Shown: positions 4,430-62,026 of the stretch, one piece after another
Numbering within the stretch: the first letter of the stretch is position 1
Layout: each line of letters starts with the position of its first letter
NCBI GenBank assembly: GCA_964503895.1
Contig: CAZDCF010000005.1
Span: forward strand, 16,972 to 80,971
DNA length: 64,000 nt
Origin: an uncultured Nitrospiraceae bacterium
GTDB lineage: Bacteria > Nitrospirota > Nitrospiria > Nitrospirales > UBA8639
Direction of reading: 5' to 3'
The notes under the pieces: model-generated
Databases searched by the model: none
What the model saw: only the letters and a program-made list of their open reading frames with translations
What the model was told of the DNA's origin: nothing
Program-made: the position numbers and the translations under genes

Positions 4430-5362
4430 CTAGAACAGTAGCTTGCCCTCAGCTACCATCACCGCTTGTCCTCCTACTTTTACTTCTTGAATCTTATCAT
4501 CATCTGAAAAGACTTGAACGAGAATACGGGAGGGTCGATCAATTTCATACCCTTGTTCCATAATTATTTCCGTGGTAGGGCCTACATCAACTACCCCATT
4601 TTTCACCAAGTACGCACCGAGTGCCCCGCTAGCGCTTCCCGTAGCCGGATCTTCAATAATCCCAATGGGTGCAGCAAACATACGGGTATGAATATGAGCC
4701 CAATCTTCGACGGCAATAGTAGTAAACACCATCATTCCATTGACTCCCAGACGATCACAAACTGCCATCGTTCCAGTTAATTCTACTTTAATCGACTTCA
4801 CTGCTGTAAGTGTCCGAACCGGAACGATAACCACAGGCAGCCCCGTAGAAACAATTTCAATCGGTAAATGGGTATCCACTATATTAGACTTATTTAGCCC
4901 TAACGCTCGACTGATTTCATACAGGTCTTGAAGATTATCAACCATTCCCAGAAATTGCGGTTCGGATTGGGACATAATCACTTGTTCCACGGACCCGTGA
5001 AAAACGCCCAATTCCACGGGGAAAAGACCAATATTGCATTCAAAGATAAACCGGGTCACCGGATCTTGCAGTGGAAACCTATTCAATAGACTCAACACAA
5101 AAAACGTTCCAATAACAGGATGGCCAGCGAATGGAATTTCTTGCGTTGGTGTAAATATACGAAGTTTGACAATAGCCGCAGGATCGGTAGGGGGAACCAC
5201 AAATACAGTCTCGGAGAGGTTCATCTCTCTAGCAATTTGCTGAAACTCTCGATCAGTTAAACCTTGAGCATCAGGAACCACAGCAACAGGATTCCCACCA
5301 AAAGCTTCATCTGCAAACACATCGGCTTTATAAAATTGAATGCGTCGAGTAGGAGTCGCCAT
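4430..5362 (-). CDS. PhzF-family isomerase/epimerase
   Basis: DVFA...GNPVAV, MNLSETVF, RIFTP..EIPFAGHP, EDPATGSA motifs. Confidence 0.9.
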   Translation of the reverse strand: MATPTRRIQFYKADVFADEAFGGNPVAVVPDAQGLTDREFQQIAREMNLSETVFVVPPTDPAAIVKLRIFTPTQEIPFAGHPVIGTFFVLSLLNRFPLQDPVTRFIFECNIGLFPVELGVFHGSVEQVIMSQSEPQFLGMVDNLQDLYEISRALGLNKSNIVDTHLPIEIVSTGLPVVIVPVRTLTAVKSIKVELTGTMAVCDRLGVNGMMVFTTIAVEDWAHIHTRMFAAPIGIIEDPATGSASGALGAYLVKNGVVDVGPTTEIIMEQGYEIDRPSRILVQVFSDDDKIQEVKVGGQAVMVAEGKLLF

Positions 5363-5517
5363 ATTTACAGGTTAGAAAAAACGAATTTGAGTGAATAGTA
5401 TTGGGACATTCCAAAACCTTCACCAACTCTTGGGAATAAACAATTTAGACTTAGAAATGTTAGCAAAAACAATTAACTATCGTGAAAATTTAAGGAACAG
5501 GCTGGCAGTAAAACACG

Positions 5518-6756
5518 TTAGGCGCTTAAAGGCAAGGCTTCATAACTCGAGGCTGACGGATTTCGAACGTAATCCTCCACAAAATTTTTCAGATTTCCGT
5601 TTCTGTAAAGTCGTGTATTCGCAAACTTGGTATCGATCTTATGCAATACTTTGACCTTCACTCCAGTCTTTTTTATAAATTCTTCCAAGGTCACACCCAT
5701 AATATCCATGTAAGATCCACGCCCAGATTCCATGACACTTTTAGGAATATGAATTCGCTTTTCATTCGTCAAGCGTTGCCGAATATCGTCAAATGTAAGC
5801 AGAACGGTACAATCCGAGTCCCCTTGCAGCATAGCATTGGGTACGTACAGAAATCGCGCGCGCTTCTTTCGATACATATTCAGTATCTTATGCACGCTTC
5901 CTGCCATCACCACCGTGTCTTTCTTCTCCAATTCAAGCGAATCAAACATACTTACAATTCGCTTCCGATTCAGAAAAGCCGTGACATACGCCTCTGTATG
6001 AATCGTAGTTTCATTAGGAAGACCCGCATCATAAATTCGCTCCGCCTCCACCGGAAGATACTTCCTGCCTTGCCGCATGATTGTAGTAGTATCTTCTTTA
6101 AGACCTCGAACTGGGGTAAGACAGCCCATCCACAAGATACATTTTTGATTGATGCGCGAAATCATTTCCGCGTCTTTGGACATCGTATGTTCATCGAATG
6201 AATAAAAATTAGCAGAGTTGACAGCCGGCCCATCCAACACCTTCATAAGATGCCGCTCAGAAGGTGCATGAGGCATGAGTTTTTCACGGTATTTACTCAA
6301 AGTTATAACAGACAATTCGAAGTTAATACGCCCAGGATATTGCGCAACGAGTTGATGAATTTTGGGGACATGCACAAACCCCACGGTAAAAAACGTGACA
6401 TTCTTATCTGTATGCTTCAAAAAATCTTCAACCCATTCCATCGCTTTGGGATGAAGGAACAGGTCTGTCCATTCCATATATTCATTCCCACCCAAACACC
6501 AAAACTGCATGGGATTAGTTGGCTTAGAATTAATATAATTAAGAATAAACTCCCAATCATCCTGCGTGGTTTTTGGCGGATCAAGGGTTTCACGGTATGA
6601 ATGATCGAGTTCATAACAAAAATCACATTCGACAGGACATTTTTTCCCGAGACTCAATGGAATCTTTCCCGCATCCATCTCGCGCTTCAGCACTTCTCGA
6701 TAATCTTTACCTTGAAGAACTAACGTTGGTTCGAGAATCGGAAGATCACGTCCCAT
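5518..6756 (-). CDS. Radical SAM protein, DUF512-like C-terminus, no PDZ domain
   Basis: CPVECDFC (CxxxCxxC); C-terminal VPN...LLTFDDI...IPKSVM...D..GVTLEE resembles the DUF512 region. Confidence 0.7.
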   Translation of the reverse strand: MGRDLPILEPTLVLQGKDYREVLKREMDAGKIPLSLGKKCPVECDFCYELDHSYRETLDPPKTTQDDWEFILNYINSKPTNPMQFWCLGGNEYMEWTDLFLHPKAMEWVEDFLKHTDKNVTFFTVGFVHVPKIHQLVAQYPGRINFELSVITLSKYREKLMPHAPSERHLMKVLDGPAVNSANFYSFDEHTMSKDAEMISRINQKCILWMGCLTPVRGLKEDTTTIMRQGRKYLPVEAERIYDAGLPNETTIHTEAYVTAFLNRKRIVSMFDSLELEKKDTVVMAGSVHKILNMYRKKRARFLYVPNAMLQGDSDCTVLLTFDDIRQRLTNEKRIHIPKSVMESGRGSYMDIMGVTLEEFIKKTGVKVKVLHKIDTKFANTRLYRNGNLKNFVEDYVRNPSASSYEALPLSA

Positions 6757-6871
6757 AATTTTTAATTCTTTACCTCTTTCCTTGAAACTTTTAGCAATAG
6801 GCTCTTTGACAGATACTCAAACTTTCTGCAAAACTTTTACTCATCACGAAGATATTAAAACGGCATACTCC

Positions 6872-7165
6872 ATGAATTCACCAACTACGTCAAAAAAAAT
6901 TCCACAATCTCCACCTGATGAATCCATCAAAAAAGCACTAGAGCTGTTCAAACTTCCTTTACCTCTTGATTCGACAACCTTATATCAACGTTATCAAGAA
7001 CTGCTGATAACCTGGCATCCTCACCGGTATGCAAATATGACGAACAACCCCTCTAAATACATGCAAATGTATAAGAAGGGCGAGGCTACGACCAAGGAAG
7101 TCCGGGCAGCTTATAAAATGTTAAAAGAGTGGCTAGATAGAGGAAACACGCCTTCTATGGTCTGA
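6872..7165 (+). CDS. J-domain-like protein with HPH instead of HPD
   Basis: ORF track 6782..7165, ATG at 6872. ALELFKL...YQELLITWHPHRY...KEVRAAYKML matches J-domain helix layout. Confidence 0.65.
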   Translation: MNSPTTSKKIPQSPPDESIKKALELFKLPLPLDSTTLYQRYQELLITWHPHRYANMTNNPSKYMQMYKKGEATTKEVRAAYKMLKEWLDRGNTPSMV

Positions 7166-7181
7166 CTAATTTACTCATAAT

Positions 7182-9149
7182 TTACTTCGCAGAGTGGCTG
7201 ACCACTCTGGTCATCCCAGGCTCTCCGTCTTTCCCTCCTTCTGGATCGGCCTTGGCTACAGGCCAAGTAATCAAACCTGCAACAGTATCTGGTTTAGCTT
7301 CAGCAGGCACATGGTTGGTAGCATAAATTTGCGGCAACCGATTCGTGCCGAATTTAGAGATATAGAGAAAGATCTGTTCGCGTGCATTAATGCGGACCGC
7401 CCAAGGTTCAAAATCATTTTGATAAAACTCTTCGCACAATTGCATTGCATCAAGACAATTCACGCCACCTGGTTCATTGAGGGTATAGTAGTAATCCAAG
7501 GGCATATCATATTCTTCTTGTTTGTGAATCGTGATTCCAAACTTTTCTGGATTTCTCACCATTGGGGTATGCCGGTAGGCCACAAAGTAAAACAGCTCAA
7601 CAGAATGAATATTGGACTTGTTATTCAGTAAAAACTGTCTGGTATCTTCAGCTTCCTCACGAGTTTCTCCTGGAAATCCATAAAACGCCATCACATGATT
7701 CCAAATACCAACCCTAGCCGCTTCCTTTAAATTATTCTCGATAACGCTCTTTAGAGCGTGTTTATCCATACGTTCTAAAACCCGTTCATTGGCAGATTCC
7801 ATGCCATAATAGAGCGTCTTACAGCCTGATTTGGCTGCAAGATCCCATAGTTCGGGATCCTGAAGAGATTCTTCAAACCGAATCAAAGTTGTCCATTTGA
7901 TATCGACGTTTTCTTCAATTAACAATTGCGAGACCTTCTTAAAAAGCGCAGGAGGATAGGATTCATCCGCAAACAAAAAGTGGTCTGCGTGATACTTTTC
8001 CTTCAATGCATTAACTTCGCGAACCACATCATTCGCGGGCTTACCTCGATATTGATCAAAATACCCCTGTCCATGATCACAGAAGGTACATTTGCCCCAA
8101 TAACATCCTCGGGTCGCAAGATACGGAAGAATTCTAGTTGGCACGAAATAAGAGTCCAGCGGAAAGCCTTCAAAATCTGGCAAGGGGAGGCTCGTTGTTT
8201 TTTCTGTGTAAATTTCTGAATTTATTCGAACATGCCCTTGCTCTCGATACATCAAATTCGGCACTGATGTCCATTCACGATCACCCACTAACGCTTCAAG
8301 TAACCACAGCAATGCATGTTCACCCTCGTACATAATAGCCGAGTCAAAAATCTCAGTAAAAAACGGTTCTTGCTTGGCTAAATCCTCTTGCAACCTAGTG
8401 ATAACATTTCCCCCAACAGTGATATGAACATCCGGATACGCCTCTTTGATCATTTTTCCAAAGGTCAACCCCGCAATAAGCTGCATTTGCGTTCCAATGG
8501 AAATGCCCACAACTTCAGGCCGTTCTTTAGCCACCAAGGGCAGCACCAATTGTTGGCAGACATCACGGTAGACATTTACCTGTGGATCATTCAAACACGC
8601 ATATACTTCACTAGACACACCAGGACGATACCCGAGGTTGCTTTCCATCGGGTAATAAACAAGCGAAGCTGGATAATAGGCTGCCGAGATATAGCGCATG
8701 ACATCACGAAATATATTCAAAGCCCATTCAAGTTTGCTTGCATCATAAAAATCCTCGCTTCGATTAATACGCTTGGCTTCTTCCGCATTGGCAGCCAAGT
8801 CCATGACATCCAAGGATAGAACTTCCTCCAGACAGGCTTTTTGATTGACTTCCTTTTCTGTTAACTCTCGACTAGTTTCCGCGGCTTTCAACTCCCGAAG
8901 TTGTTGGGTCATCCGAGCATTCACCCAAATCAGAAACATATCGCTAAAGAACAGTTCGTACATTTCAATGTTGATATCTCGCTGAATAACCTCATGGCCA
9001 TTTTCACGAAGCACAGCGGTAAGACTGGGAAGCGCAAGGTAAGGAGCAGTGGGCACCCATTCCGGTGGAAAGAGCAGCATGGTCTTTAACTTACGACCAC
9101 TTTTTGGCTTTGAACTTTTTGTATCAATTTCTATAAAGGAAGAAGACAT
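7182..9149 (-). CDS. B12-binding domain radical SAM protein (class B methyltransferase-like), paralogue 2
   Basis: LLFPP..PYLALPSL, PEVVGISI...VGGN...EGE cobalamin-binding Rossmann segment, TRGCYWGKCTFC. Confidence 0.88.
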   Translation of the reverse strand: MSSSFIEIDTKSSKPKSGRKLKTMLLFPPEWVPTAPYLALPSLTAVLRENGHEVIQRDINIEMYELFFSDMFLIWVNARMTQQLRELKAAETSRELTEKEVNQKACLEEVLSLDVMDLAANAEEAKRINRSEDFYDASKLEWALNIFRDVMRYISAAYYPASLVYYPMESNLGYRPGVSSEVYACLNDPQVNVYRDVCQQLVLPLVAKERPEVVGISIGTQMQLIAGLTFGKMIKEAYPDVHITVGGNVITRLQEDLAKQEPFFTEIFDSAIMYEGEHALLWLLEALVGDREWTSVPNLMYREQGHVRINSEIYTEKTTSLPLPDFEGFPLDSYFVPTRILPYLATRGCYWGKCTFCDHGQGYFDQYRGKPANDVVREVNALKEKYHADHFLFADESYPPALFKKVSQLLIEENVDIKWTTLIRFEESLQDPELWDLAAKSGCKTLYYGMESANERVLERMDKHALKSVIENNLKEAARVGIWNHVMAFYGFPGETREEAEDTRQFLLNNKSNIHSVELFYFVAYRHTPMVRNPEKFGITIHKQEEYDMPLDYYYTLNEPGGVNCLDAMQLCEEFYQNDFEPWAVRINAREQIFLYISKFGTNRLPQIYATNHVPAEAKPDTVAGLITWPVAKADPEGGKDGEPGMTRVVSHSAK

Positions 9150-9154
9150 AGCAG

Positions 9155-11050
9155 CTAGACTTTCGCCAATTTTTCCGAGCTCTCCTCAGGAGAAATGCGG
9201 AACTGAAGAGCCGGGATTTTATTCGTTCCAAAGTGGGCAACATACATGAAAACATATTCGCGAATAAAAATTTTCAAATCCCAGCCTGGGTAATGACTTT
9301 GTTCGAACTCTTCGAAAACCCGTTCAGCATCTTCAACACCCAAGCCATCCTTCACTGTAAAATAATAATCCAGCGCCAAATCCCACTCTGGATTCTTGTA
9401 ATAGGTGACTCCCCATTTTTCCGCATTCTGCGCCACAGGCGTATGCTTGCTCAAGTCAAAAGTGCCGAATCCAATGGAATGTACATGTTCCTTGTTGTCT
9501 TCCAATACTTGCATGGATACTTTTGCGTCTTCGTATCGCTCACCAGGAAAACCGAAGAAACCCATGACATGATTCCATACTCCATGGGTGGATGAGAGTT
9601 CCATGCTTCGCTGAATTACATCAAGAGTAGTAGCCTTATCCATGAGTTTCAGTACACGCTCACTGCCAGACTCATAGCCGAAATGCAAAAATTTGCACCC
9701 TGAATCTTGAGCATCTTGCCACACCTCATCATCCAACAAACTTTTTTCGAAGCGAATGTGCGTGGTCCAAGCAATTCCCATCTTTTCCTCTTTTAAGGCA
9801 CGCGTGAGTTTCCGAAACAAGGCAGGGGGATAAGATTCGTCCGTGAAATGGAAGTGATAGGTACTATATTTGTCTCGAAGAAATTTCACTTCTTCAATGA
9901 TTTCTTGAATCTTCTTTGTTCGATATCCGGCTGTATAGCCTTCGCCATGATCACAAAACTCACATCGGCCCCAATAACATCCACGTGTAGCAAGATAAGG
10001 AAGTATTGGCTCGGGAACGAAATATTTTTCCATGGGCAAGCCGTCAAAATCTGGGGGTGGCAAATCCGACATACTTTCAGAAGAGGTCACGGGCGAAACA
10101 TGAATACCCAAATCATCACGCCACAACAAATTAGGAATTTCATTGAAATCCTGATCCGTGCCAACAGCTTCAACTAATTGCAAAAATGCAGTCTCCCCTT
10201 CATACACTACAGCACTATCAAAATGCTCGAACAGCTTTGGCGTTTCCGGTAACACATCACGCAACCGGGTCACGGTATTACCGCCAATGGTCACATGGAT
10301 GTTGGGAAATTGTTCCTTAATCATGGCACAAAAAGTCATGGTCGAAAATAATTGCTGACGCAAAACGATGGAAATACCAATAATCTCAGGCCGCTCTGCA
10401 ACAATGGCTGGCTTTAGAATATGTTCAAATACATCTCTATAGATATTGACTTGAGTATCATCCACAGCCTGTAATATTTCTGAAGACATAAAAATTTTAT
10501 AGGAAAGATCCGTCTCCATGGGTGGCATACAAATACGAGCTGGCGCATATACCAAAGAAATTGTGGATGTCACTTCTCGAAAGATATTGATAGCCCATTC
10601 GAGTTTATCAACGTCATAAAAGTCTGGCGTCCGAACAATTTCCTTGGCACGTTCGGCTTTTTCTGTTAAATCAACCATTTTCGATCGCGTACATTCACAT
10701 AATGCTATTTGAAGTTCGCTCTCTTCATCAGAAAGTCCACGATCCCGGCCAAGCTTTTTTAAACGGTCGAGCTGTTGAGGAACACGTTTTACTACGCGCT
10801 TGAGAAAATCAGCGCTAAAGTACCAATCATACATTTCAAGGTTGACATCCTTTTGAACCACCTCATGCCCAGCTTGACGAAGAAAGGCCGTTAAAGTGGG
10901 AAGGCTAAGATATGGCTCTGAGGGATACCAATCAGGGGGAAAAACCAACATGACCTTTTTCTTGGGTCCGCTATCAGCCTGAGATTCTTTTCGACGCAGT
11001 TGTACCTGCTGAGGACTGATCAGCCCGCCTTTGTTATAATCAATCCTCAT
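9155..11050 (-). CDS. B12-binding domain radical SAM protein (class B methyltransferase-like), paralogue 1
   Basis: LVFPP..PYLSLPTL, PEIIGISI...IGGN...EGE, TRGCYWGRCEFC; 5 nt from paralogue 2. Confidence 0.88.
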   Translation of the reverse strand: MRIDYNKGGLISPQQVQLRRKESQADSGPKKKVMLVFPPDWYPSEPYLSLPTLTAFLRQAGHEVVQKDVNLEMYDWYFSADFLKRVVKRVPQQLDRLKKLGRDRGLSDEESELQIALCECTRSKMVDLTEKAERAKEIVRTPDFYDVDKLEWAINIFREVTSTISLVYAPARICMPPMETDLSYKIFMSSEILQAVDDTQVNIYRDVFEHILKPAIVAERPEIIGISIVLRQQLFSTMTFCAMIKEQFPNIHVTIGGNTVTRLRDVLPETPKLFEHFDSAVVYEGETAFLQLVEAVGTDQDFNEIPNLLWRDDLGIHVSPVTSSESMSDLPPPDFDGLPMEKYFVPEPILPYLATRGCYWGRCEFCDHGEGYTAGYRTKKIQEIIEEVKFLRDKYSTYHFHFTDESYPPALFRKLTRALKEEKMGIAWTTHIRFEKSLLDDEVWQDAQDSGCKFLHFGYESGSERVLKLMDKATTLDVIQRSMELSSTHGVWNHVMGFFGFPGERYEDAKVSMQVLEDNKEHVHSIGFGTFDLSKHTPVAQNAEKWGVTYYKNPEWDLALDYYFTVKDGLGVEDAERVFEEFEQSHYPGWDLKIFIREYVFMYVAHFGTNKIPALQFRISPEESSEKLAKV

Positions 11051-51169: not shown

Positions 51170-51577
51170 TTGGCCGTGCCCATATACGAGTATCAGTGCG
51201 AATCCTGTGAGCACATATTTGAAACCCAGCAAAAGTTTTCAGACCCACCAGTAGAAGCATGCGTTAAATGTGGCAAAAGCGTCCGAAAACTAATCTCCGC
51301 CCCAGGCATCCTGTTCAAAGGAACAGGATGGTATGTGACAGACTACTCGAATAAATTGAAAGATCCCAATCTATCCAAACCCAGCGCATCAGCTGGGGGA
51401 AAACAGGATAGCGGGACTTCGGGAGTTTCAGGTGGGGATAGTGGTGGAGATTCTAATTCAAGTGGTGGAAAAAGCGACTCGAGTTCAACCTCGTCATCCT
51501 CTTCTGATTCCTCGTCATCCTCTTCTAGTTCCTCATCATCCTCAACATCGTCATCTTCGCCAAAATCGGGCTCTTAA
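51170..51577 (+). CDS. FmdB-family zinc ribbon protein with Gly/Ser tail
   Basis: PIYEYQCESC...CVKCG...FKGTGWYVTDY, then Ser-rich tail. Confidence 0.88.
   Translation: MAVPIYEYQCESCEHIFETQQKFSDPPVEACVKCGKSVRKLISAPGILFKGTGWYVTDYSNKLKDPNLSKPSASAGGKQDSGTSGVSGGDSGGDSNSSGGKSDSSSTSSSSSDSSSSSSSSSSSSTSSSSPKSGS
51489..51544 (+). repeat. 21-nt period tandem repeat encoding poly-Ser
   Basis: CCTCGTCATCCTCTTCT at 51489 and 51510; degenerate third copy at 51531. Confidence 0.7.
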
Positions 51578-55062: not shown

Positions 55063-55767
55063 ATGACAGCAAACAAAAAAATGGTCCCTTATTCCACCCT
55101 TACCCTAAATATTACGATAGCCCTGCTCCTGACTTTTAATTCTACAGCCATCGCCTCCCCTAAAAGCCCAGCGACACATATCCGACACCAGTCCGTCCCA
55201 ATCCTTGGCGTAACATTCGACAAAACGAAGCGCCCCTTGGGTATAGTGATGTACGCCATGATTCATTTCCAAAAACGAGCAGACCATGATGGACTTAAAG
55301 TACATTTTCGAAAAGTCCTAGGACGATTCGGCCCCATTGCTCGAAAAGCAGTAGCAACATCTATAGGCCTGGCTGCCAAAGTATCGAAACTAAAGGATGA
55401 TTCCTGGACGGTGATCCTAGAATTTCCTTATGCTGGCTTGACAATGTATGGGGCCAGTTTATCCGCAATGATAGCCCTTTCCGTTATTGCACTCGCTAAG
55501 GATGATGCTGTGAAATATGGCCGGACACTTACTGGAACAATTTTAAAGAATGGCCGCATAGGAACAGTTACAGGCATTCCCTATAAAGTCTATGCTGCTC
55601 ACGCAGCAGGCCTTGAACAAGTTCTCATTCCCGAAGAATACCACCCGCTTGATGGAGAATGGCGACTCCCCTTTCTTATGCATATCTCACATGTTGGAAC
55701 TCTCGAGAAAGCCTACCAACGCTTAACAGACCAACCATTATTTCCAAAACATTCCTTAAGGCAATGA
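55063..55767 (+). CDS. Exported stand-alone Lon-type (S16) protease domain
   Basis: Signal peptide; GAS*LS with Lys exactly 43 residues later (IPYK), TGTI..NGRIG, AAHAAGLEQVLIP. Confidence 0.75.
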   Translation: MTANKKMVPYSTLTLNITIALLLTFNSTAIASPKSPATHIRHQSVPILGVTFDKTKRPLGIVMYAMIHFQKRADHDGLKVHFRKVLGRFGPIARKAVATSIGLAAKVSKLKDDSWTVILEFPYAGLTMYGASLSAMIALSVIALAKDDAVKYGRTLTGTILKNGRIGTVTGIPYKVYAAHAAGLEQVLIPEEYHPLDGEWRLPFLMHISHVGTLEKAYQRLTDQPLFPKHSLRQ

Positions 55768-55988: not shown

Positions 55989-58832
55989 ATGAGCCCCCTA
56001 CTAAAAATAGTCCTGTTTCCTGCAATCCTTGGTGGCCTTATGGCGATGACGCCATGGTATCCCGCTTGGGAAAACACCTTCTATGACAAACGCATGACAT
56101 GGTTTGTAGAGGAGCATCCACGAGCCCAAGAAATTCTGTTGATAGGCATGCAGCGATCACCCCGAGAGTATATATGCGGGAATTATTCAAATCGTGGCCA
56201 GGCCACGACGGACAAAGCTCTGGCTGTTACACTTGAATCGCTAGATAAACTATCCCCCAAAGCTGTGGCTTTAGCGTTTCGTCTCCCGAACTGTGAAGCT
56301 CTCAAGCATCTGGGAGCCAAACTGGCACCCTTGAGAAATCAGGGCATTCCGCTTGTATTAATACCACCTAAAACGTCGGCTGTCACTGAAAGTAATGTCC
56401 CCCGTACCTTGCTCCTCCAAGATTTGTATTTAGAAGAGGATCCCAACTGGTATCGTGTTCAGTCTGGCGATACCTTATCAATGATTGCTTATCGATTTCA
56501 TACCACCGTGCGGACTCTCAAAAGCCTAAACAATTTGTCAGATGACAAGATTGCATACGGACAACGACTGCTGATTAGCCAAAAAGAAAAGGAGTCCGTC
56601 TCGCATCTCCCTACTACATCATTAACCGCAATCGGTACGCTTGAGATCAAAGCACAGGATACGGAGGATGGAATCTTACGAGCTTTAGATTTAGGATCTC
56701 GCATTCCCCCGATCGGAGTCCTCTTAGCTGACTTGCTCAACTTAGAGCAAACAGCTCCATTTGATCCTTTCCCAAAAATACAACCCACCGTTCAGAAGAA
56801 TAAAACCTGGCGCATTACCTATAGTGAGTCTTGGTATGCAGACCCGAAACCGTTTCACTACCAGTCCCTCGATCATTTTTCTGTTTTGGACAATCGAGCA
56901 ACAAAAGCTCTCATCAACGACAAAATCGTCATTCTTTTTGACGCAACAGAGGAATCTACGGTCAGGACCCCACGCGGTGAACTTGTCCCACGTGCTTATA
57001 TTCATGCCCAAGTACTACTCAATCGCCTGACGGGCATGACAATTGTCACATCTTCTTGGTGGCAAACTGTGTGCCTGATTCTTCTAGGCAGTAGTGCCAT
57101 GGCAAGCCTCTATCATATTTCGTCCTATCGACGACGGAGTAATTCTAATCCAATCATCATCTGGCTATATCCAGTCGGCTGGACTCTCTTTCTATTCCTA
57201 ATCTTAGGCATAGGCCAGTATCTCGCTTTTTTCATGACTCAATATATGATTGAGGTTATTCCTCCCCTTGTCGCCACTGGAATTGCTGCGTTTGGAGTTA
57301 CCATCCTCACATGGCATCAGTCCTTTGCTCGCTTGGCTTCACGGATGGAAGATATGCAATCGGAGCGAGATGTCATGCTGGATGAACGAGCACGATTACT
57401 TGAGACAGCAGAAGAAAATACAGAAGAAATCTTGAAAATGGATCGCCAGCTGAATGAACAAAACGCTGCTATATTGCTTTTAGAAGGTGACCTGAAACAG
57501 CAGAAAGACTTTCAGCGTCAATACCTGCCGCATAAGGTTCCCCTGAAGCCCCCTAAAGACGAGAGCTGGCTTGAGTTAGAGCAAGAAGCGAAAGGCTTCG
57601 ACATCGTGACTCGGGACAGAACAATGTTGCAGGCCTTCCATGCGCTCAAAGAGTTATCCCAAAATCCTGAGCGACCCATCTTTATTTCTGGAGACACAGG
57701 AACGGGAAAAGAGCTGTATGCAAAGGCTTCGCATCACTTGAGTGATCGTCCGAACGGTCCATTTAAAACCATTAATATGGGAGAACTTACTGGAGAGAAA
57801 CTCCTGTCGCGACTGTTTGGAACTGCAAAGGGTGCATTCACCGGCGTTCATGGTAGTGAAGGACTCTTTCAGCAAGCTCATCGCGGCACCTTATTCCTCG
57901 ATGAAATCGCCAATCTTAATAGGGAAGGACAAGGTCAAATCTTACGGGTACTAGAGGATGGGTGCTTTACACCACTGGGTGGGAAAACATCAATAAGAAC
58001 CGATGTACGTCTAATTTTTGCCACAAATAAAAATCTCAAAAAAGAGTGGGGAGAAGGACGATTCATGGAAGATCTGTATCACCGCGTAATGAGTGGGGGA
58101 ATCATTAGACTGATCCCACTGCAGAAGCGCGCCAAGGAAGACCGCCAACTGATAACAGACCATCTCCTTCGCAAAAATACTCGTCGCGATTCTATCCCTC
58201 GACTAACAGAAGAAGCCCTAGAATGGATTTTTGAACAGCCTTGGCCTGGAAATGTCCGTGAGTTAGACGGCGTTTTGTACCGGAGCCTTACGAACCATCC
58301 AGAAGTACCAACAATCCAACGAGAACATTTAGTGCAAGCTGTTGATACTGAAAGTCCCCTGTTACCAGATGAGCCTATGAGACAAGACTCAAGCCCGCTT
58401 CTGTCTCCAGAAGTGGTTGACCCACTTACCACGCAGTTGTCTGATGAAGAGTTCATGGGAAAATTCTGCGGCTTTCAAGGAGCTATTGGGCAGTTAGCCG
58501 CCGAGCTAGGTCAACACCGGGATCGCGTCACGCTAAGGGTCAAGGGATTGGCATTTGAGGCTATATGTCAGGGCGGGAGCCCTCCTAACTATGAGGAGTG
58601 TTGTGAGCGGATACTCCGAGGCCATGCTCTTTCTCGTCTCCCCAAGCGAAAACTAGAGAAGAAATTGAGGGGATATTGGGACACACTTGTAAGAACTTGT
58701 CAGGACTGCCCTTCACCTGACGAAGCGATAGCTTCTATCTTTAAGCAAAATGAAAATATGCTGACCCGCAAACACTATCTGCGCGACCTTGAGCCCTTCA
58801 TCAAGCAACACTACTCCTCCCTGAACCGGTAA
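55989..58832 (+). CDS. Membrane-bound sigma54-dependent activator: CHASE2 with inserted LysM, 3 TM, coiled coil, AAA+ domain, HTH-like tail
   Basis: LysM YRVQSGDTLSMIAYRFHTTVRTLKSLNNL..DKI..GQRL; CHASE2-like DGILR and KIV...TP.G...HAQ; GDTGTGKE, GAFTGV, LFLDEI, WPGNVREL. Confidence 0.88.
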   Translation: MSPLLKIVLFPAILGGLMAMTPWYPAWENTFYDKRMTWFVEEHPRAQEILLIGMQRSPREYICGNYSNRGQATTDKALAVTLESLDKLSPKAVALAFRLPNCEALKHLGAKLAPLRNQGIPLVLIPPKTSAVTESNVPRTLLLQDLYLEEDPNWYRVQSGDTLSMIAYRFHTTVRTLKSLNNLSDDKIAYGQRLLISQKEKESVSHLPTTSLTAIGTLEIKAQDTEDGILRALDLGSRIPPIGVLLADLLNLEQTAPFDPFPKIQPTVQKNKTWRITYSESWYADPKPFHYQSLDHFSVLDNRATKALINDKIVILFDATEESTVRTPRGELVPRAYIHAQVLLNRLTGMTIVTSSWWQTVCLILLGSSAMASLYHISSYRRRSNSNPIIIWLYPVGWTLFLFLILGIGQYLAFFMTQYMIEVIPPLVATGIAAFGVTILTWHQSFARLASRMEDMQSERDVMLDERARLLETAEENTEEILKMDRQLNEQNAAILLLEGDLKQQKDFQRQYLPHKVPLKPPKDESWLELEQEAKGFDIVTRDRTMLQAFHALKELSQNPERPIFISGDTGTGKELYAKASHHLSDRPNGPFKTINMGELTGEKLLSRLFGTAKGAFTGVHGSEGLFQQAHRGTLFLDEIANLNREGQGQILRVLEDGCFTPLGGKTSIRTDVRLIFATNKNLKKEWGEGRFMEDLYHRVMSGGIIRLIPLQKRAKEDRQLITDHLLRKNTRRDSIPRLTEEALEWIFEQPWPGNVRELDGVLYRSLTNHPEVPTIQREHLVQAVDTESPLLPDEPMRQDSSPLLSPEVVDPLTTQLSDEEFMGKFCGFQGAIGQLAAELGQHRDRVTLRVKGLAFEAICQGGSPPNYEECCERILRGHALSRLPKRKLEKKLRGYWDTLVRTCQDCPSPDEAIASIFKQNENMLTRKHYLRDLEPFIKQHYSSLNR

Positions 58833-58873: not shown

Positions 58874-58936
58874 TGCCGTGACTTGTCGGTAATCATGCTG
58901 TGACCTGCACGAGCTCACGGCATGATTGCCGTGAGC
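58874..58936. promoter_or_regulatory. Enhancer-like (UAS) palindromic sites
   Basis: Perfect GCTCACGGCA-TGAT-TGCCGTGAGC at 58913-58936; inverted 16/20 copy at 58884-58903; half-site TGCCGTGA at 58874-58881. Confidence 0.65.
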
Positions 58937-59052: not shown

Positions 59053-59070
59053 CTGGCATAGAAATAGCAA
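59053..59070 (+). promoter_or_regulatory. sigma54 (-24/-12) promoter
   Basis: CTGGCATAGAAATAGCAA: GG(59055-56)-N10-GC(59067-68), about 130 bp downstream of the palindrome. Confidence 0.7.
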
Positions 59071-59436: not shown

Positions 59437-59505
59437 CATCTCCTTAAAAGGTCATAACGCACGATGAGTAGAACTTTGCCATTCTTCCTTAAAAGGAGAT
59501 TTACC

Positions 59506-60420
59506 ATGCGGTATAGAGCCATTCACAACGAACTTTTCAAGCAACTAGAAAACCAAGATTCCAAGGTCCGAGCCGCCGCAGCCTATAGTTTGGGAAAAAT
59601 GAAAGTGCGACGAGGAATTAAACATCTGGCGCGTGCGCTGCAGGATCACATCCCTGAGGTGCGTTACCATGCAGTTTGGGCATTGGGGGTGATCAGGGAC
59701 CCGAAAGCCTTTGCCTATCTCAAGATTGCCAAACTGGATAATGATTCGGAAGTGCAGTGCGCAATCCAGCAAGCCTTGTACCGACTTGCCCTACCCTCGA
59801 CAGATTCACTGATTGACATGCTTGCCAATCACCCAAATCCTCAGAAACGTTCACAGGCTGCAAAGTCATTAGGCACCCTTTGCGAGTCACAAGCCCTGGA
59901 GGCACTGGTCCGTGCACTGAAAGATCCCTCGCTGCGGGTCAAATTTGAATCGATTCGGGCCATTGGATACTTACATTTCAACGGAGATCCCAATTTACTC
60001 AAAAAGATTATTACTTCATTGAATGATGAAAATCCAGTCCTGCGCCGGCACATTGTAGTGGCAATCCGACACCTACTGACATACGGCATACCTATACATG
60101 AGCAGAATATTATTAGGCCCCCTCTAACGTCAGCGTCGTCTGCTCCTCAATTGCAAGCCTGCACTGAGATAACAACGACACATCAAGACTTAGAGATGCG
60201 TTATGCGGTTAAAAGGTTATTCAATTGTCTACGAAACGATCCAGACCCATTGATACGAGTTGAAGCTGCCAGGACCTTAGGACATCTGCTGGGTAACTCC
60301 ACGGCACCAGAACCTAGATGGAATGAATCTCGTCATAAGGCACCTATCAGTTCTAGCGATAGCATAGGCAGAAACACTCCCCTTGTTGTCTTGAAGGGAG
60401 GGGTAACAGGGGCTTTCTGA
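59506..60420 (+). CDS. HEAT (PBS lyase-type) repeat protein
   Basis: ORF track 59464..60420; AAGGAG SD before ATG 59506; VRAAAAYSLG, VRYHAVWALG, IRVEAARTLG repeats. Confidence 0.85.
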   Translation: MRYRAIHNELFKQLENQDSKVRAAAAYSLGKMKVRRGIKHLARALQDHIPEVRYHAVWALGVIRDPKAFAYLKIAKLDNDSEVQCAIQQALYRLALPSTDSLIDMLANHPNPQKRSQAAKSLGTLCESQALEALVRALKDPSLRVKFESIRAIGYLHFNGDPNLLKKIITSLNDENPVLRRHIVVAIRHLLTYGIPIHEQNIIRPPLTSASSAPQLQACTEITTTHQDLEMRYAVKRLFNCLRNDPDPLIRVEAARTLGHLLGNSTAPEPRWNESRHKAPISSSDSIGRNTPLVVLKGGVTGAF

Positions 60421-60522: not shown

Positions 60523-61410
60523 ATGAACCACAAAAACTACTTAATAACTGGCATTGCTATTTTTTTCGTACTGGTGATGGGAGGAGCTGGGATTACCTAC
60601 ATTTTTCTTACCCATCAACCAGCAGTTGCAACAAAACCACTTACAAAAATTCAACACCCACGTAAGAGTAACCAGTCTCCAGAGAAGATTCCCACTCCGG
60701 CTCATGCTCACGACACTACAAAAGATTCCTCAAGACATTCTCCGGACCTGGTAGAGAAAGTCGAGACGGAATCTGGAGCATCTCTTGTACATGCCTCAAC
60801 CATTTATGTGGAACCATCGACTACGCCAAACGTTACAAAGCAGGCTTTCGAGGTCGAAAAGAGAAAAGAAGAAAAATTAACCTTAGTTGACCTACAGTTT
60901 GGTTTAAGTCGAACGGGATTGAAAACCCAGACCAAGACCACCCTTGATGCTTATGCGAAAAGACTGCGGGACCCGCAATGGAGTGTACTGATTGAAGGAC
61001 ATACGGATGAGACTGGATCAATCCGGAAAAATCTGCATGTTGGATTACGACGCGCCAACGCGGTTAGGCAATATCTGATCACGAAGGGAATTTCCAAAGA
61101 CCGTCTGCATGCCGTAAGCCTTGGGGAATATCAGCCAGTATGCATGGATACAACTCCAGCGTGCCAGTTACAGAACCGTCGCGTGAGTTTTGCCTTAGCA
61201 CGACGGGAAGGCATTGAAAAACAAAACTCGGTTCCAGTGCCACAGGAGCCGGTAACACTTTCTAAAAAAAGCGCGATATCAATTGAACTGGTAAATCTCC
61301 CTGAAATCCACAAGAGCACGATTGATACCCCGGGTAAAGTAAACCTGATATATCCTGACCCTGTTCATAATACTCCACCTCCCTCTATACCAGTTGAGGG
61401 TGACAACTGA
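60523..61410 (+). CDS. Inner-membrane-anchored OmpA-like peptidoglycan-binding protein
   Basis: N-terminal TM; IEGHTDETG..N..GLRRANAVRQYL..G...LGEYQP...NRRV. Confidence 0.88.
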   Translation: MNHKNYLITGIAIFFVLVMGGAGITYIFLTHQPAVATKPLTKIQHPRKSNQSPEKIPTPAHAHDTTKDSSRHSPDLVEKVETESGASLVHASTIYVEPSTTPNVTKQAFEVEKRKEEKLTLVDLQFGLSRTGLKTQTKTTLDAYAKRLRDPQWSVLIEGHTDETGSIRKNLHVGLRRANAVRQYLITKGISKDRLHAVSLGEYQPVCMDTTPACQLQNRRVSFALARREGIEKQNSVPVPQEPVTLSKKSAISIELVNLPEIHKSTIDTPGKVNLIYPDPVHNTPPPSIPVEGDN

Positions 61411-61454: not shown

Positions 61455-61910
61455 TCAACACCCCTTGTAGTTTTTCTGCGCACATGCCCTTGCAAGTTGC
61501 TGCGCTTCTTTTAGCTGCGACTGCGTCATGGACTTTGAAAACTTATTTCTAGCTTTAACAGAAGTCTTATTGCCCAGAAAGGCGGCAATATTCCACCACA
61601 TATGAGCATACACTCTATCTTGCTTAACCCCTTTGCCATCATAATACATCTTGCCTAGCGAAGTTTGTGCGACTGTATCACCTTGTTCCGCACTAAGACG
61701 GAACCACTTTGCTGCTTCTTTATAATCTTGCGCCACTTCGCTACCCTTGTAATATTTAATACCCAGTAAGCGCTGCGAATCTACATCACCTTGTGCTGCT
61801 GCAGTTTTCAAATAATTGAGTCCATAGCTTTGACCTGTTGTTGCGCACCCCACTATGGTCGCACACAACACCACGCTCACGAGGACAAAATAGAATCGGC
61901 TAGTTAACAT
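61455..61910 (-). CDS. Sel1-repeat lipoprotein
   Basis: ORF track to 61994; ATG 61910 gives lipobox IVGC; two Sel1 repeats (QDYKEAAKWFRLSAEQG). Confidence 0.85.
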   Translation of the reverse strand: MLTSRFYFVLVSVVLCATIVGCATTGQSYGLNYLKTAAAQGDVDSQRLLGIKYYKGSEVAQDYKEAAKWFRLSAEQGDTVAQTSLGKMYYDGKGVKQDRVYAHMWWNIAAFLGNKTSVKARNKFSKSMTQSQLKEAQQLARACAQKNYKGC

Positions 61911-62026
61911 CGGAAAATCTCCCACAATATTTCGTGCCTCTATTTTTAAAAATTCAAAAGAGTAAATGGACAACCTGATAACTTTAGTAAGCATTGCGAT
62001 AATCTAGAGAATTCTTAAGGTAAAAT

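Follow-up and report, generated by a model that had tools for sequence, protein, structure and literature searches.

Here, we analysed a 64,000-nucleotide stretch of DNA (contig CAZDCF010000005.1, positions 16,972 to 80,971; hereafter the window) from the 1.84-Mb, 92.6% complete assembly of an uncultured Nitrospirales bacterium. We found that one open frame at 55989-58832 on the forward strand encodes an intact protein of 947 amino acids (P0001), in which a LysM domain splits a periplasmic CHASE2 sensor domain that is joined, through the membrane, to a sigma-54 AAA+ domain. On balance, we consider it likely that P0001 is a working one-component, membrane-integrated sigma-54 activator from a family with the order CHASE2, transmembrane (TM) helices, coiled coil, AAA+ domain and helix-turn-helix (HTH) domain, one subclade of which carries a peptidoglycan-type LysM on flexible linkers in a CHASE2 loop. 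The activator is probably the switch for the neighbouring operon, which encodes an OmpA-like protein of wall-binding type, and the state of the wall may be coupled to transcription through this one protein. CHASE2 is a widespread bacterial sensor domain whose ligands and mechanism are largely unknown, and sigma-54 activators are, in textbooks, soluble proteins. What is new in the window is the LysM insertion together with a co-varying module of enhancer, promoter and OmpA-like gene; the backbone itself is common and uncharacterised.

Domain architecture of the activator

The orthologues of P0001 are 53-77% identical to it and co-linear from end to end. The gene and the parts of its product are as follows (aa, amino acids; AF2, AlphaFold2).

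55989-58832, forward strand: membrane-bound sigma-54 activator gene, from the open reading frame and its translation, Pfam domains and orthologues
55998-56048, forward strand: N-terminal TM helix or signal anchor, aa 4-20; Kyte-Doolittle peak 1.78, AF2 helix 3-18, kept in all seven clade members
56049-56360, forward strand: N-terminal half of CHASE2, aa 21-124; Pfam, and alignment with LysM-less CHASE2 activators up to the 'G.PVVL' block
56361-56624, forward strand: insertion in the CHASE2 loop, namely a linker (aa 125-153), the LysM (aa 154-196, 56448-56576) and a second linker (aa 197-212); alignment, Pfam, AF2 and Foldseek
56625-57056, forward strand: C-terminal half of CHASE2, aa 213-356; Pfam, and the blocks 'IG.L....DGV.R' and 'K.V.L' common to the whole family
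57057-57314, forward strand: three TM helices, aa ~357-442, with a cytoplasmic RRR loop; hydropathy, and AF2 helices 357-376, 388-417 and 424 onward
57315-57482, forward strand: heptad-patterned helix, aa ~443-498; free of Pro and Gly, a/d occupancy, AF2 helix continuous with TM4
57603-58355, forward strand: sigma-54 AAA+ domain and lid, aa 539-789; PF00158 at 160.8 bits and PF25601
58443-58829, forward strand: putative divergent Fis-type HTH, aa ~819-861, and family-specific helical extension to aa 947; family alignment, HTH_8 of relatives, AF2

The domain order thus runs from the N-terminal TM helix through the LysM-split periplasmic CHASE2, three TM helices, the heptad-patterned helix and the sigma-54 AAA+ domain to the putative divergent Fis-type HTH with its helical extension. 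The original prediction, made from the sequence alone, had proposed an anchor, CHASE2 halves around a LysM, three TM helices and the AAA+ domain of bEBPs (bacterial enhancer-binding proteins), and Pfam, hydropathy and AF2 confirm this architecture. Its position for the LysM, about 56451-56579, was accurate (the Pfam LysM covers 56451-56576), and it had overlooked the C-terminal domain of DNA-binding type. A scan with NCBIfam recognised the generic bEBP core alone, and no OmpR-type winged-helix domain was found in P0001 by the Pfam and NCBIfam scans. The start at M20 chosen by the gene caller (P0002) was discarded, since N-terminal conservation and topology speak for the ATG at 55989: the first 20 residues are kept in all seven orthologues, with M1, V8, L9, A12, G15, G16 and M20 invariant, and they supply the TM helix that the topology needs.

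The topology was determined from Kyte-Doolittle hydropathy and an AF2 model of aa 1-470, which was based on a 31-sequence family alignment and reached a mean pLDDT (predicted local distance difference test score) of 76.6 and a pTM (predicted template modelling score) of 0.69. Hydropathy and model give four TM helices (aa 4-20, 357-376, 388-417 and 424-442), and the RRR loop is at aa 381-383 on the cytoplasmic side. This is the topology of CHASE2 proteins, in which a single TM helix at the N-terminus is followed by an extracytoplasmic domain (aa 21-356) and then by three further TM helices. Sequence and model place P0001 in the inner membrane and its CHASE2 and LysM on the periplasmic side, where, in a diderm, the LysM can reach peptidoglycan. 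Following the last TM helix, aa 443-498 contain no Pro or Gly, hydrophobic residues occupy 0.62-0.75 of the a/d heptad positions, and in the AF2 model TM4 continues as one helix without a break as far as aa 469, where the model ends. These properties make a coiled coil at aa ~443-498 plausible, as the original prediction had it, and fall short of proving it. The corresponding segment is longer in LysM-less relatives than in the LysM clade.

The Pfam match to CHASE2 extends over aa 20-366 (E 3.8e-10, 40.2 bits with a cut-off of 26.3) and covers positions 11-251 of the 257 in the profile, so that about 90 residues inside the domain are surplus. CHASE2 is matched in the aligned relatives with E 1e-20 to 1e-24. 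The LysM (PF01476) is matched at aa 155-196 (E 1.2e-13, 51.2 bits with a cut-off of 20.9). The insertion point was set by an alignment in which P0001 was joined by seven orthologues and by 23 relatives of the same order that lack the LysM. All aligned sequences share the CHASE2 blocks that flank the insert, and the loop between them has 96-98 residues in the LysM clade compared to 21 residues in the LysM-less relatives of the same family, which are the closest in the alignment. At the same point of the loop, relatives that belong to two other families have unrelated inserts, 45-50 aa long. Judged by this alignment, the LysM is a true insertion in a hot-spot loop of CHASE2 that is variable in length.

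The AF2 model shows the LysM as a beta-alpha-alpha-beta fold (E154-156, H163-169, H174-181 and E193-195, with pLDDT 66-86), and pLDDT is below 50 in the segments around it (aa 130-150 and 200-210), which suggests a separate module on two flexible tethers. When the periplasmic model was compared to the PDB with Foldseek, LysM domains were the sole matches, with a root-mean-square deviation of 0.5-1.0 A over 44 residues to 4uz2, 4xcm and 8rhf. The top matches are the LysMs of wall hydrolases, namely Thermus NlpC/P60 (4uz2; 43% identity, 0.6 A) and Pseudomonas MltD (8rhf; 50% identity); LysMs of chitinases and of plant chitin receptors are in the list at lower rank. The CHASE2 core had no significant fold match in the PDB by Foldseek, and a sequence search of the PDB found no solved CHASE2 structure. 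Within the clade, 47% of the LysM columns are invariant, compared to 35-41% in the CHASE2 halves and 0% in the second linker; the LysM is the most conserved periplasmic segment, which argues for selection on it. Taken together, these results identify a real LysM that is, by sequence and modelled fold, of the bacterial peptidoglycan-binding type. The 43-50% identity to wall-hydrolase LysMs and the conserved positions GDTL...N.L...GQ.L suggest that it binds a glycan containing N-acetylglucosamine (GlcNAc).

On the cytoplasmic side, Sigma54_activat (PF00158) matches aa 539-701 (E 3e-47, 160.8 bits with a cut-off of 20.2) and AAA_lid_14 (PF25601) matches aa 716-789. Walker A (GDTGTGKE) is at aa 568, Walker B (LFLDEI) at aa 635 and the loop that contacts sigma-54 at aa 615; in this loop, the F/Y-T-G core is kept and the final Ala is replaced across the whole clade. 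The last 160 residues align across the whole family and have invariant A, R, G, Y and N columns. Pfam finds HTH_8 at the equivalent position of the relatives L005, L007 and L009 (E 1.7e-6 to 1.4e-3), and the family profile has weak matches to the NtrC DNA-binding domains 3e7l, 4fth and 1ntc (E 0.1-0.3). AF2 models the C-terminal region with pLDDT 86 as eight helices, a three-helix unit (pLDDT >90) and then five more, and the domain as a whole gave no significant fold match in the PDB. In our reading, aa ~819-947 comprise a divergent Fis-type HTH and, after it, a helical extension of ~90 aa that is specific to the family; this would make the protein a complete one-component regulator.

In one locus of the clade (L016, 2164-4629), the encoded protein (P0011, 821 aa) is without ~127 residues from the end of the AAA+ lid through the HTH. 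The L018 protein, which is near-identical to P0011, has 948 aa, and P0011 is either a real deletion variant or an assembly artefact.

The module downstream of the activator gene

The region 3' of the activator gene contains the following features.

58885-58935, no strand assigned: candidate enhancer made up of two palindromes, one degenerate (58885-58902) and one perfect, of the form 10-4-10 and including ACGGCA-N4-TGCCGT (58914-58935); kept in seven loci of the clade
59054-59069, forward strand: sigma-54 promoter-like TGGCAT-N5-TAGCA (GG-N10-GC); at the same place in L010, L011, L012, L014, L016 and L018
59137-59436, forward strand: gene for a small basic protein of 99 aa (16 K+R and 6 D+E), the first gene past the promoter; Shine-Dalgarno AAGGAG upstream
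59464-60420, forward strand: gene for a HEAT-repeat protein; Pfam HEAT_2, E 7e-38
60523-61410, forward strand: gene for a membrane-anchored OmpA-domain protein of peptidoglycan-binding type, the conserved last target gene; Pfam OmpA, E 4.7e-17, and an N-terminal TM segment

The same module is found 3' of the gene in all six LysM-clade loci that have full downstream DNA (protein identity 53-77%), with the order two palindromes, a conserved AT-rich block, the sigma-54 promoter, a Shine-Dalgarno sequence, the gene for the small basic protein and the OmpA-domain gene. In a seventh clade locus, which is cut by the contig end, the palindromes are still present. The clade palindromes read ACGGCA-N4-TGCCGT and lie about 31 bp apart; the first one is degenerate in the window. 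They begin ~50 bp after the stop codon of the activator gene, and the promoter follows ~130 bp further on. The perfect 16-mer palindrome occurs once in the 1.84-Mb assembly, and the promoter pattern has one match in the window compared to 0.26 expected by chance. The source genome has rpoN (418.9 bits).

The small basic protein varies in length from 57 to 141 aa and belongs to no Pfam family, and its motif ELE.L.I....PPRW.RI.PAQYLKER is conserved in six loci. Orthologues of the OmpA-domain protein follow the activator in L010, L012, L014, L016 and L018, and the protein of the window is 48% identical to that of L018. The genes upstream of the activator differ between the LysM-clade loci.

Downstream of the 23 LysM-less loci, the module of palindromes, promoter and small-protein gene is absent, except for a related layout in L008, a LysM-less locus from the genus of the window. 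There, three related elements follow the activator gene, namely the palindrome GCGGCA-N5-TGCCGC, the promoter TGGTAC-N5-TTGCT and a gene for an OmpA-like protein, with 38% identity between its OmpA domain and that of the window. This layout suggests that control of a peptidoglycan-binding OmpA-type protein predates the LysM insertion or is independent of it.

In L014 (G006, 9596-10000), an extra stretch of ~400 bp that is absent from the other loci separates the activator stop codon from the palindromes. Within it are a tandem direct repeat (GAAGTCCCCCCTTTGGAA twice) and an inverted repeat rich in G+C.

Family distribution and related systems

Related loci come from the Nitrospirales metagenome-assembled genomes (MAGs) OY820905 and OZ252040, and the LysM clade comprises about ten sequences out of Nitrospirales MAGs and metagenomes. 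About ten full-length relatives with the LysM (55-70% identity) were found in a collection of 5.8 billion proteins, and the LysM-bearing form is present in three species of the genome collection. The LysM-less backbone is spread across the order: of 301 Nitrospirota genomes, 51 have its signature C-terminal domain, in each case within frames of 860-1010 aa and usually once per genome. In every genome checked there is exactly one family member, either of the LysM type or LysM-less, and both types exist within the genus of the window. The LysM-less relatives are 26-34% identical to P0001. In a tree of the region from the AAA+ to the C-terminal domain, the LysM clade is monophyletic (support 100) and lies outside all LysM-less members, whose positions otherwise follow taxonomy.

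The two types also differ in what precedes them. Upstream of LysM-less members lie genes for TPR or Sel1 repeat proteins that carry signal peptides; stop and start codons often overlap, and we read the pairs as translationally coupled and usually co-transcribed. In the LysM clade, this partner is gone and no conserved upstream partner is found. One LysM-less subgroup (L030, 402-2134; L033, 244-1926) has a secreted trypsin-like protease and a secreted protein of ~200 aa upstream instead of the TPR or Sel1 protein, and a gene for a CarboxypepD_reg-domain protein after the activator. L023, which comes from a different family of the order, has a gene for a CHASE2 adenylate/guanylate cyclase (5166-7385, reverse strand) directly upstream of the CHASE2 sigma-54 activator, which places two CHASE2 receptors of different output in tandem.

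The membrane-bound fusion of CHASE2 to a bEBP had been taken for an unusual architecture, and the distribution of the backbone speaks against this; the LysM insertion alone is special. Such proteins already bear the label 'NtrC family response regulator/CHASE2 domain-containing sensor protein' in automatic annotation by the Joint Genome Institute. We found no paper that joins CHASE2 with sigma-54 or enhancer-binding proteins, in a search that left many subscription journals outside its reach, so that a published description may exist. General searches on membrane-bound bEBPs gave nothing relevant. The signalling-related literature on CHASE2 that was found concerns cyclases, kinases, GGDEF proteins and caspase-like proteins.

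The sequence searches carry limits of their own. A profile search of the whole library with the periplasmic domain of the clade returned, beyond its own representative and two fragments, multi-LysM proteins for all of the best 150 matches, among which a weaker lineage with LysM in CHASE2 could be hidden. Word-index searches with the LysM-less sensor region and with the family profile gave only a handful of CHASE2 proteins and do not fix the range of the family outside Nitrospirota. CHASE2 proteins with cyclase, GGDEF/EAL or histidine kinase output were found as distant matches only. A PF05226 search of the source genome had no match and missed the activator itself, and is uninformative on other CHASE2 proteins.

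Compared to known systems, P0001 is closest in its output to the bEBPs NtrC1, DctD and ZraR. It shares with them the sigma-54 AAA+ core and the Walker A and B motifs, has a variant of their GAFTGA-type loop and a putative Fis-like HTH at the C-terminus, and also has a tandem palindromic enhancer ~130 bp upstream of a -24/-12 promoter and a helical or coiled-coil linker before the AAA+ domain that could gate ring assembly. In contrast to them, it has no receiver domain or partner kinase, its regulatory module is a transmembrane CHASE2 with four TM helices, its putative HTH is divergent with a helical extension of ~90 aa, and its loop ends in V or I rather than A. With the LysM-less CHASE2 activators of Nitrospirota it has in common the whole backbone from the N-terminal TM helix to the C-terminal domain and the single copy per genome. 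The usual outputs of CHASE2 are cyclase, kinase and GGDEF/EAL domains, whereas the output here is a sigma-54 AAA+ domain.

Other systems resemble P0001 in part. In the 'BiofilmReg' operon of Burkholderia, a periplasmic LysM-FecR protein is encoded beside a CHASE2 histidine kinase and a response regulator (PMC5192318), which is also a functional link between a LysM-bearing periplasmic element and a CHASE2 transmembrane sensor; there, the LysM is carried by a protein of its own and the signal leaves through a two-component phosphorelay, whereas in P0001 the LysM is fused into CHASE2 and the sigma-54 activator is covalently attached. PspF with PspA/B/C of the phage-shock response likewise relays the state of the envelope to a sigma-54 activator, but PspF is soluble, is inhibited by protein-protein contact at the membrane, and has no periplasmic sensor domain and no contact with the wall. 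ToxR, CadC and TcpP are inner-membrane DNA-binding activators with a periplasmic sensor and a target promoter next to the regulator gene; they have an N-terminal winged helix, one TM helix, sigma-70 promoters and no AAA+ motor, and P0001 is like them in logic only. The plant LysM receptor kinases (CERK1 and NFR1/5) and the bacterial PASTA kinases (PknB/PrkC) couple an extracytoplasmic glycan or muropeptide module to a cytoplasmic signalling domain, but their output is a Ser/Thr kinase and their LysM or PASTA repeats are the whole ectodomain rather than an insert. The likeness to these kinases is convergence, not homology of the whole protein.

Signal transmission, alternative explanations and neighbouring genes

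The conserved layout suggests a route from the activator to its target. The C-terminal HTH would bind the two palindromes after its own stop codon, as their conservation suggests, and the AAA+ ring would form under the membrane, comparable to membrane-anchored AAA+ hexamers such as FtsH, and remodel the sigma-54 holoenzyme at the GG-N10-GC promoter. This promoter would turn on the small basic protein and the inner-membrane-anchored OmpA-domain protein. A target next to the regulator gene suits a membrane-bound factor. On the input side, the LysM may contact the peptidoglycan layer or GlcNAc-containing fragments, and a change in this contact may alter the conformation of CHASE2; by analogy with the linkers of NtrC1 and DctD, the signal could then pass through the TM helices and the coiled coil and permit or block oligomerisation of the AAA+ domain. 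This step from LysM contact through CHASE2 to the gating of AAA+ is the least certain. Once induced, the OmpA-type protein would act as a tether between inner membrane and wall and close a feedback loop. In the LysM-less relatives, the co-transcribed secreted TPR or Sel1 protein is a probable accessory sensor, and the LysM clade is without such a partner. These partners, together with the LysM-FecR and CHASE2 kinase neighbours in Burkholderia, suggest that CHASE2 sensors may work with accessory modules that face the wall or the envelope, and that in the LysM clade this module has been built into the sensor.

The original prediction had gone further and proposed direct signalling from the cell wall to sigma-54. 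The conserved enhancer, sigma-54 promoter and OmpA-type target downstream favour a one-component route of this kind. That the LysM insert is the true signal input is a more tentative proposal, which we regard as possible rather than likely: occupancy of, or mechanical load on, a doubly tethered, peptidoglycan-bound LysM would directly gate assembly of the sigma-54 AAA+ ring at the enhancer adjacent to its own gene, with feedback through induction of the peptidoglycan-tethering OmpA-type protein.

Several observations weigh against these readings, either for the input or for the activator as a whole. The LysM could be a mere anchor, and to our knowledge no ligand of CHASE2 has been established in any system. 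The sigma-54 contact loop is GAFTGV in P0001 and GAYTGV or GGFTGI/V in the orthologues, not GAFTGA, the -12 element is TAGCA or TGGCA, not TTGCA, and Pfam does not detect HTH_8 (PF02954) in P0001 itself. The stem of the LysM clade is 1.9 substitutions per site long, and a change of function along it is possible. The HEAT gene between the small-protein and OmpA-like genes is confined to the window and its closest relative (L010/L011) and is absent from L012, L014, L016 and L018.

Of the alternatives, an anchoring role of the LysM is the strongest, although we think it on the whole unlikely. Here, the LysM would position or anchor the protein on the sacculus, for example at a given depth of the envelope or at a given site, and the CHASE2 core would sense an unrelated cue, as in the LysM-less relatives. 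Many bacterial LysM domains merely retain proteins on the wall. The CHASE2 core blocks are kept on both sides of the insert, the two low-confidence linkers suggest a loosely tethered module, and LysM-less relatives seem to control an OmpA-like gene too, all of which fit such a role. On the other hand, the loss of the TPR or Sel1 partner in the LysM clade suggests that the LysM replaces an accessory sensing function, and a double tether inside the sensor loop is well placed to transmit strain. It is improbable that what the LysM senses is a GlcNAc polymer from outside, for example chitin oligomers that enter the periplasm, rather than the wall of the cell itself, and that the system monitors nutrients or the environment. 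Chitin oligomers and peptidoglycan are both bound by LysM domains as a class, and chitinase and plant-receptor LysMs are among the lower Foldseek matches. However, in structure and sequence the best matches come from bacterial wall hydrolases, the conserved target is an OmpA-type protein of the peptidoglycan-binding kind and not a set of chitin-utilisation genes, and none of the loci has a linked gene for a chitinase or for GlcNAc uptake.

We give very little credence to a P0001 that is decaying or repurposed and no longer activates sigma-54, with the neighbouring promoter-like site served by another activator. The altered contact loop, the undetected HTH_8 and the long branch could be read in this way, as could the internal deletion in P0011 of L016, which removes the region from the lid to the HTH. 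Against this, the full-length open reading frame is intact in eight lineages, and both Walker motifs, the F/Y-T-G core of the contact loop and the invariant positions of the C-terminal domain are conserved. In addition, the palindromes and the promoter co-occur strictly with the LysM clade, and P0001 and its counterparts are the sole family members in their genomes.

A CHASE2 domain wired to a sigma-54 motor is a compact system with a single adjacent promoter that can be moved into a reporter strain. The LysM clade adds a module of known specificity, which gives a testable hypothesis that the sensor monitors the cell wall, and the comparison between LysM-bearing relatives and single-copy LysM-less relatives with their TPR or Sel1 partners provides a built-in natural control. 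The system is also relevant to the proposal that sigma-54 chiefly controls the exterior of the cell, and it shows how membrane-tethered AAA+ activators might assemble. If the LysM is the input, P0001 would be a one-protein pathway from wall to transcription, a bacterial counterpart of the plant LysM receptor kinases, and would provide the first defined ligand context for any CHASE2 domain.

Three neighbouring genes of the window were also noted. Directly upstream of the activator, 55063-55767 (forward strand) encodes a secreted protein of 234 aa that has a signal peptide and the C-terminal (S16) domain of Lon protease only, with no ATPase; it was rejected as a conserved component of the system, since, outside the window, it occurs in the closest relative (L010/L011) alone. 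A Sel1-repeat lipoprotein with the lipobox IVGC, also present in L010, is encoded at 61455-61994 (reverse strand), convergent with the OmpA-like gene. It was rejected as a homologue of the Sel1 partner in L008, the likeness being generic and at the level of the repeats only. Further upstream, 51170-51577 (forward strand) encodes a Zn-ribbon (CxxC...CxxC) protein whose C-terminal half is an almost pure low-complexity tail of Ser, Gly and Asp, and L010 has a Zn_ribbon_8 orthologue at the same place.

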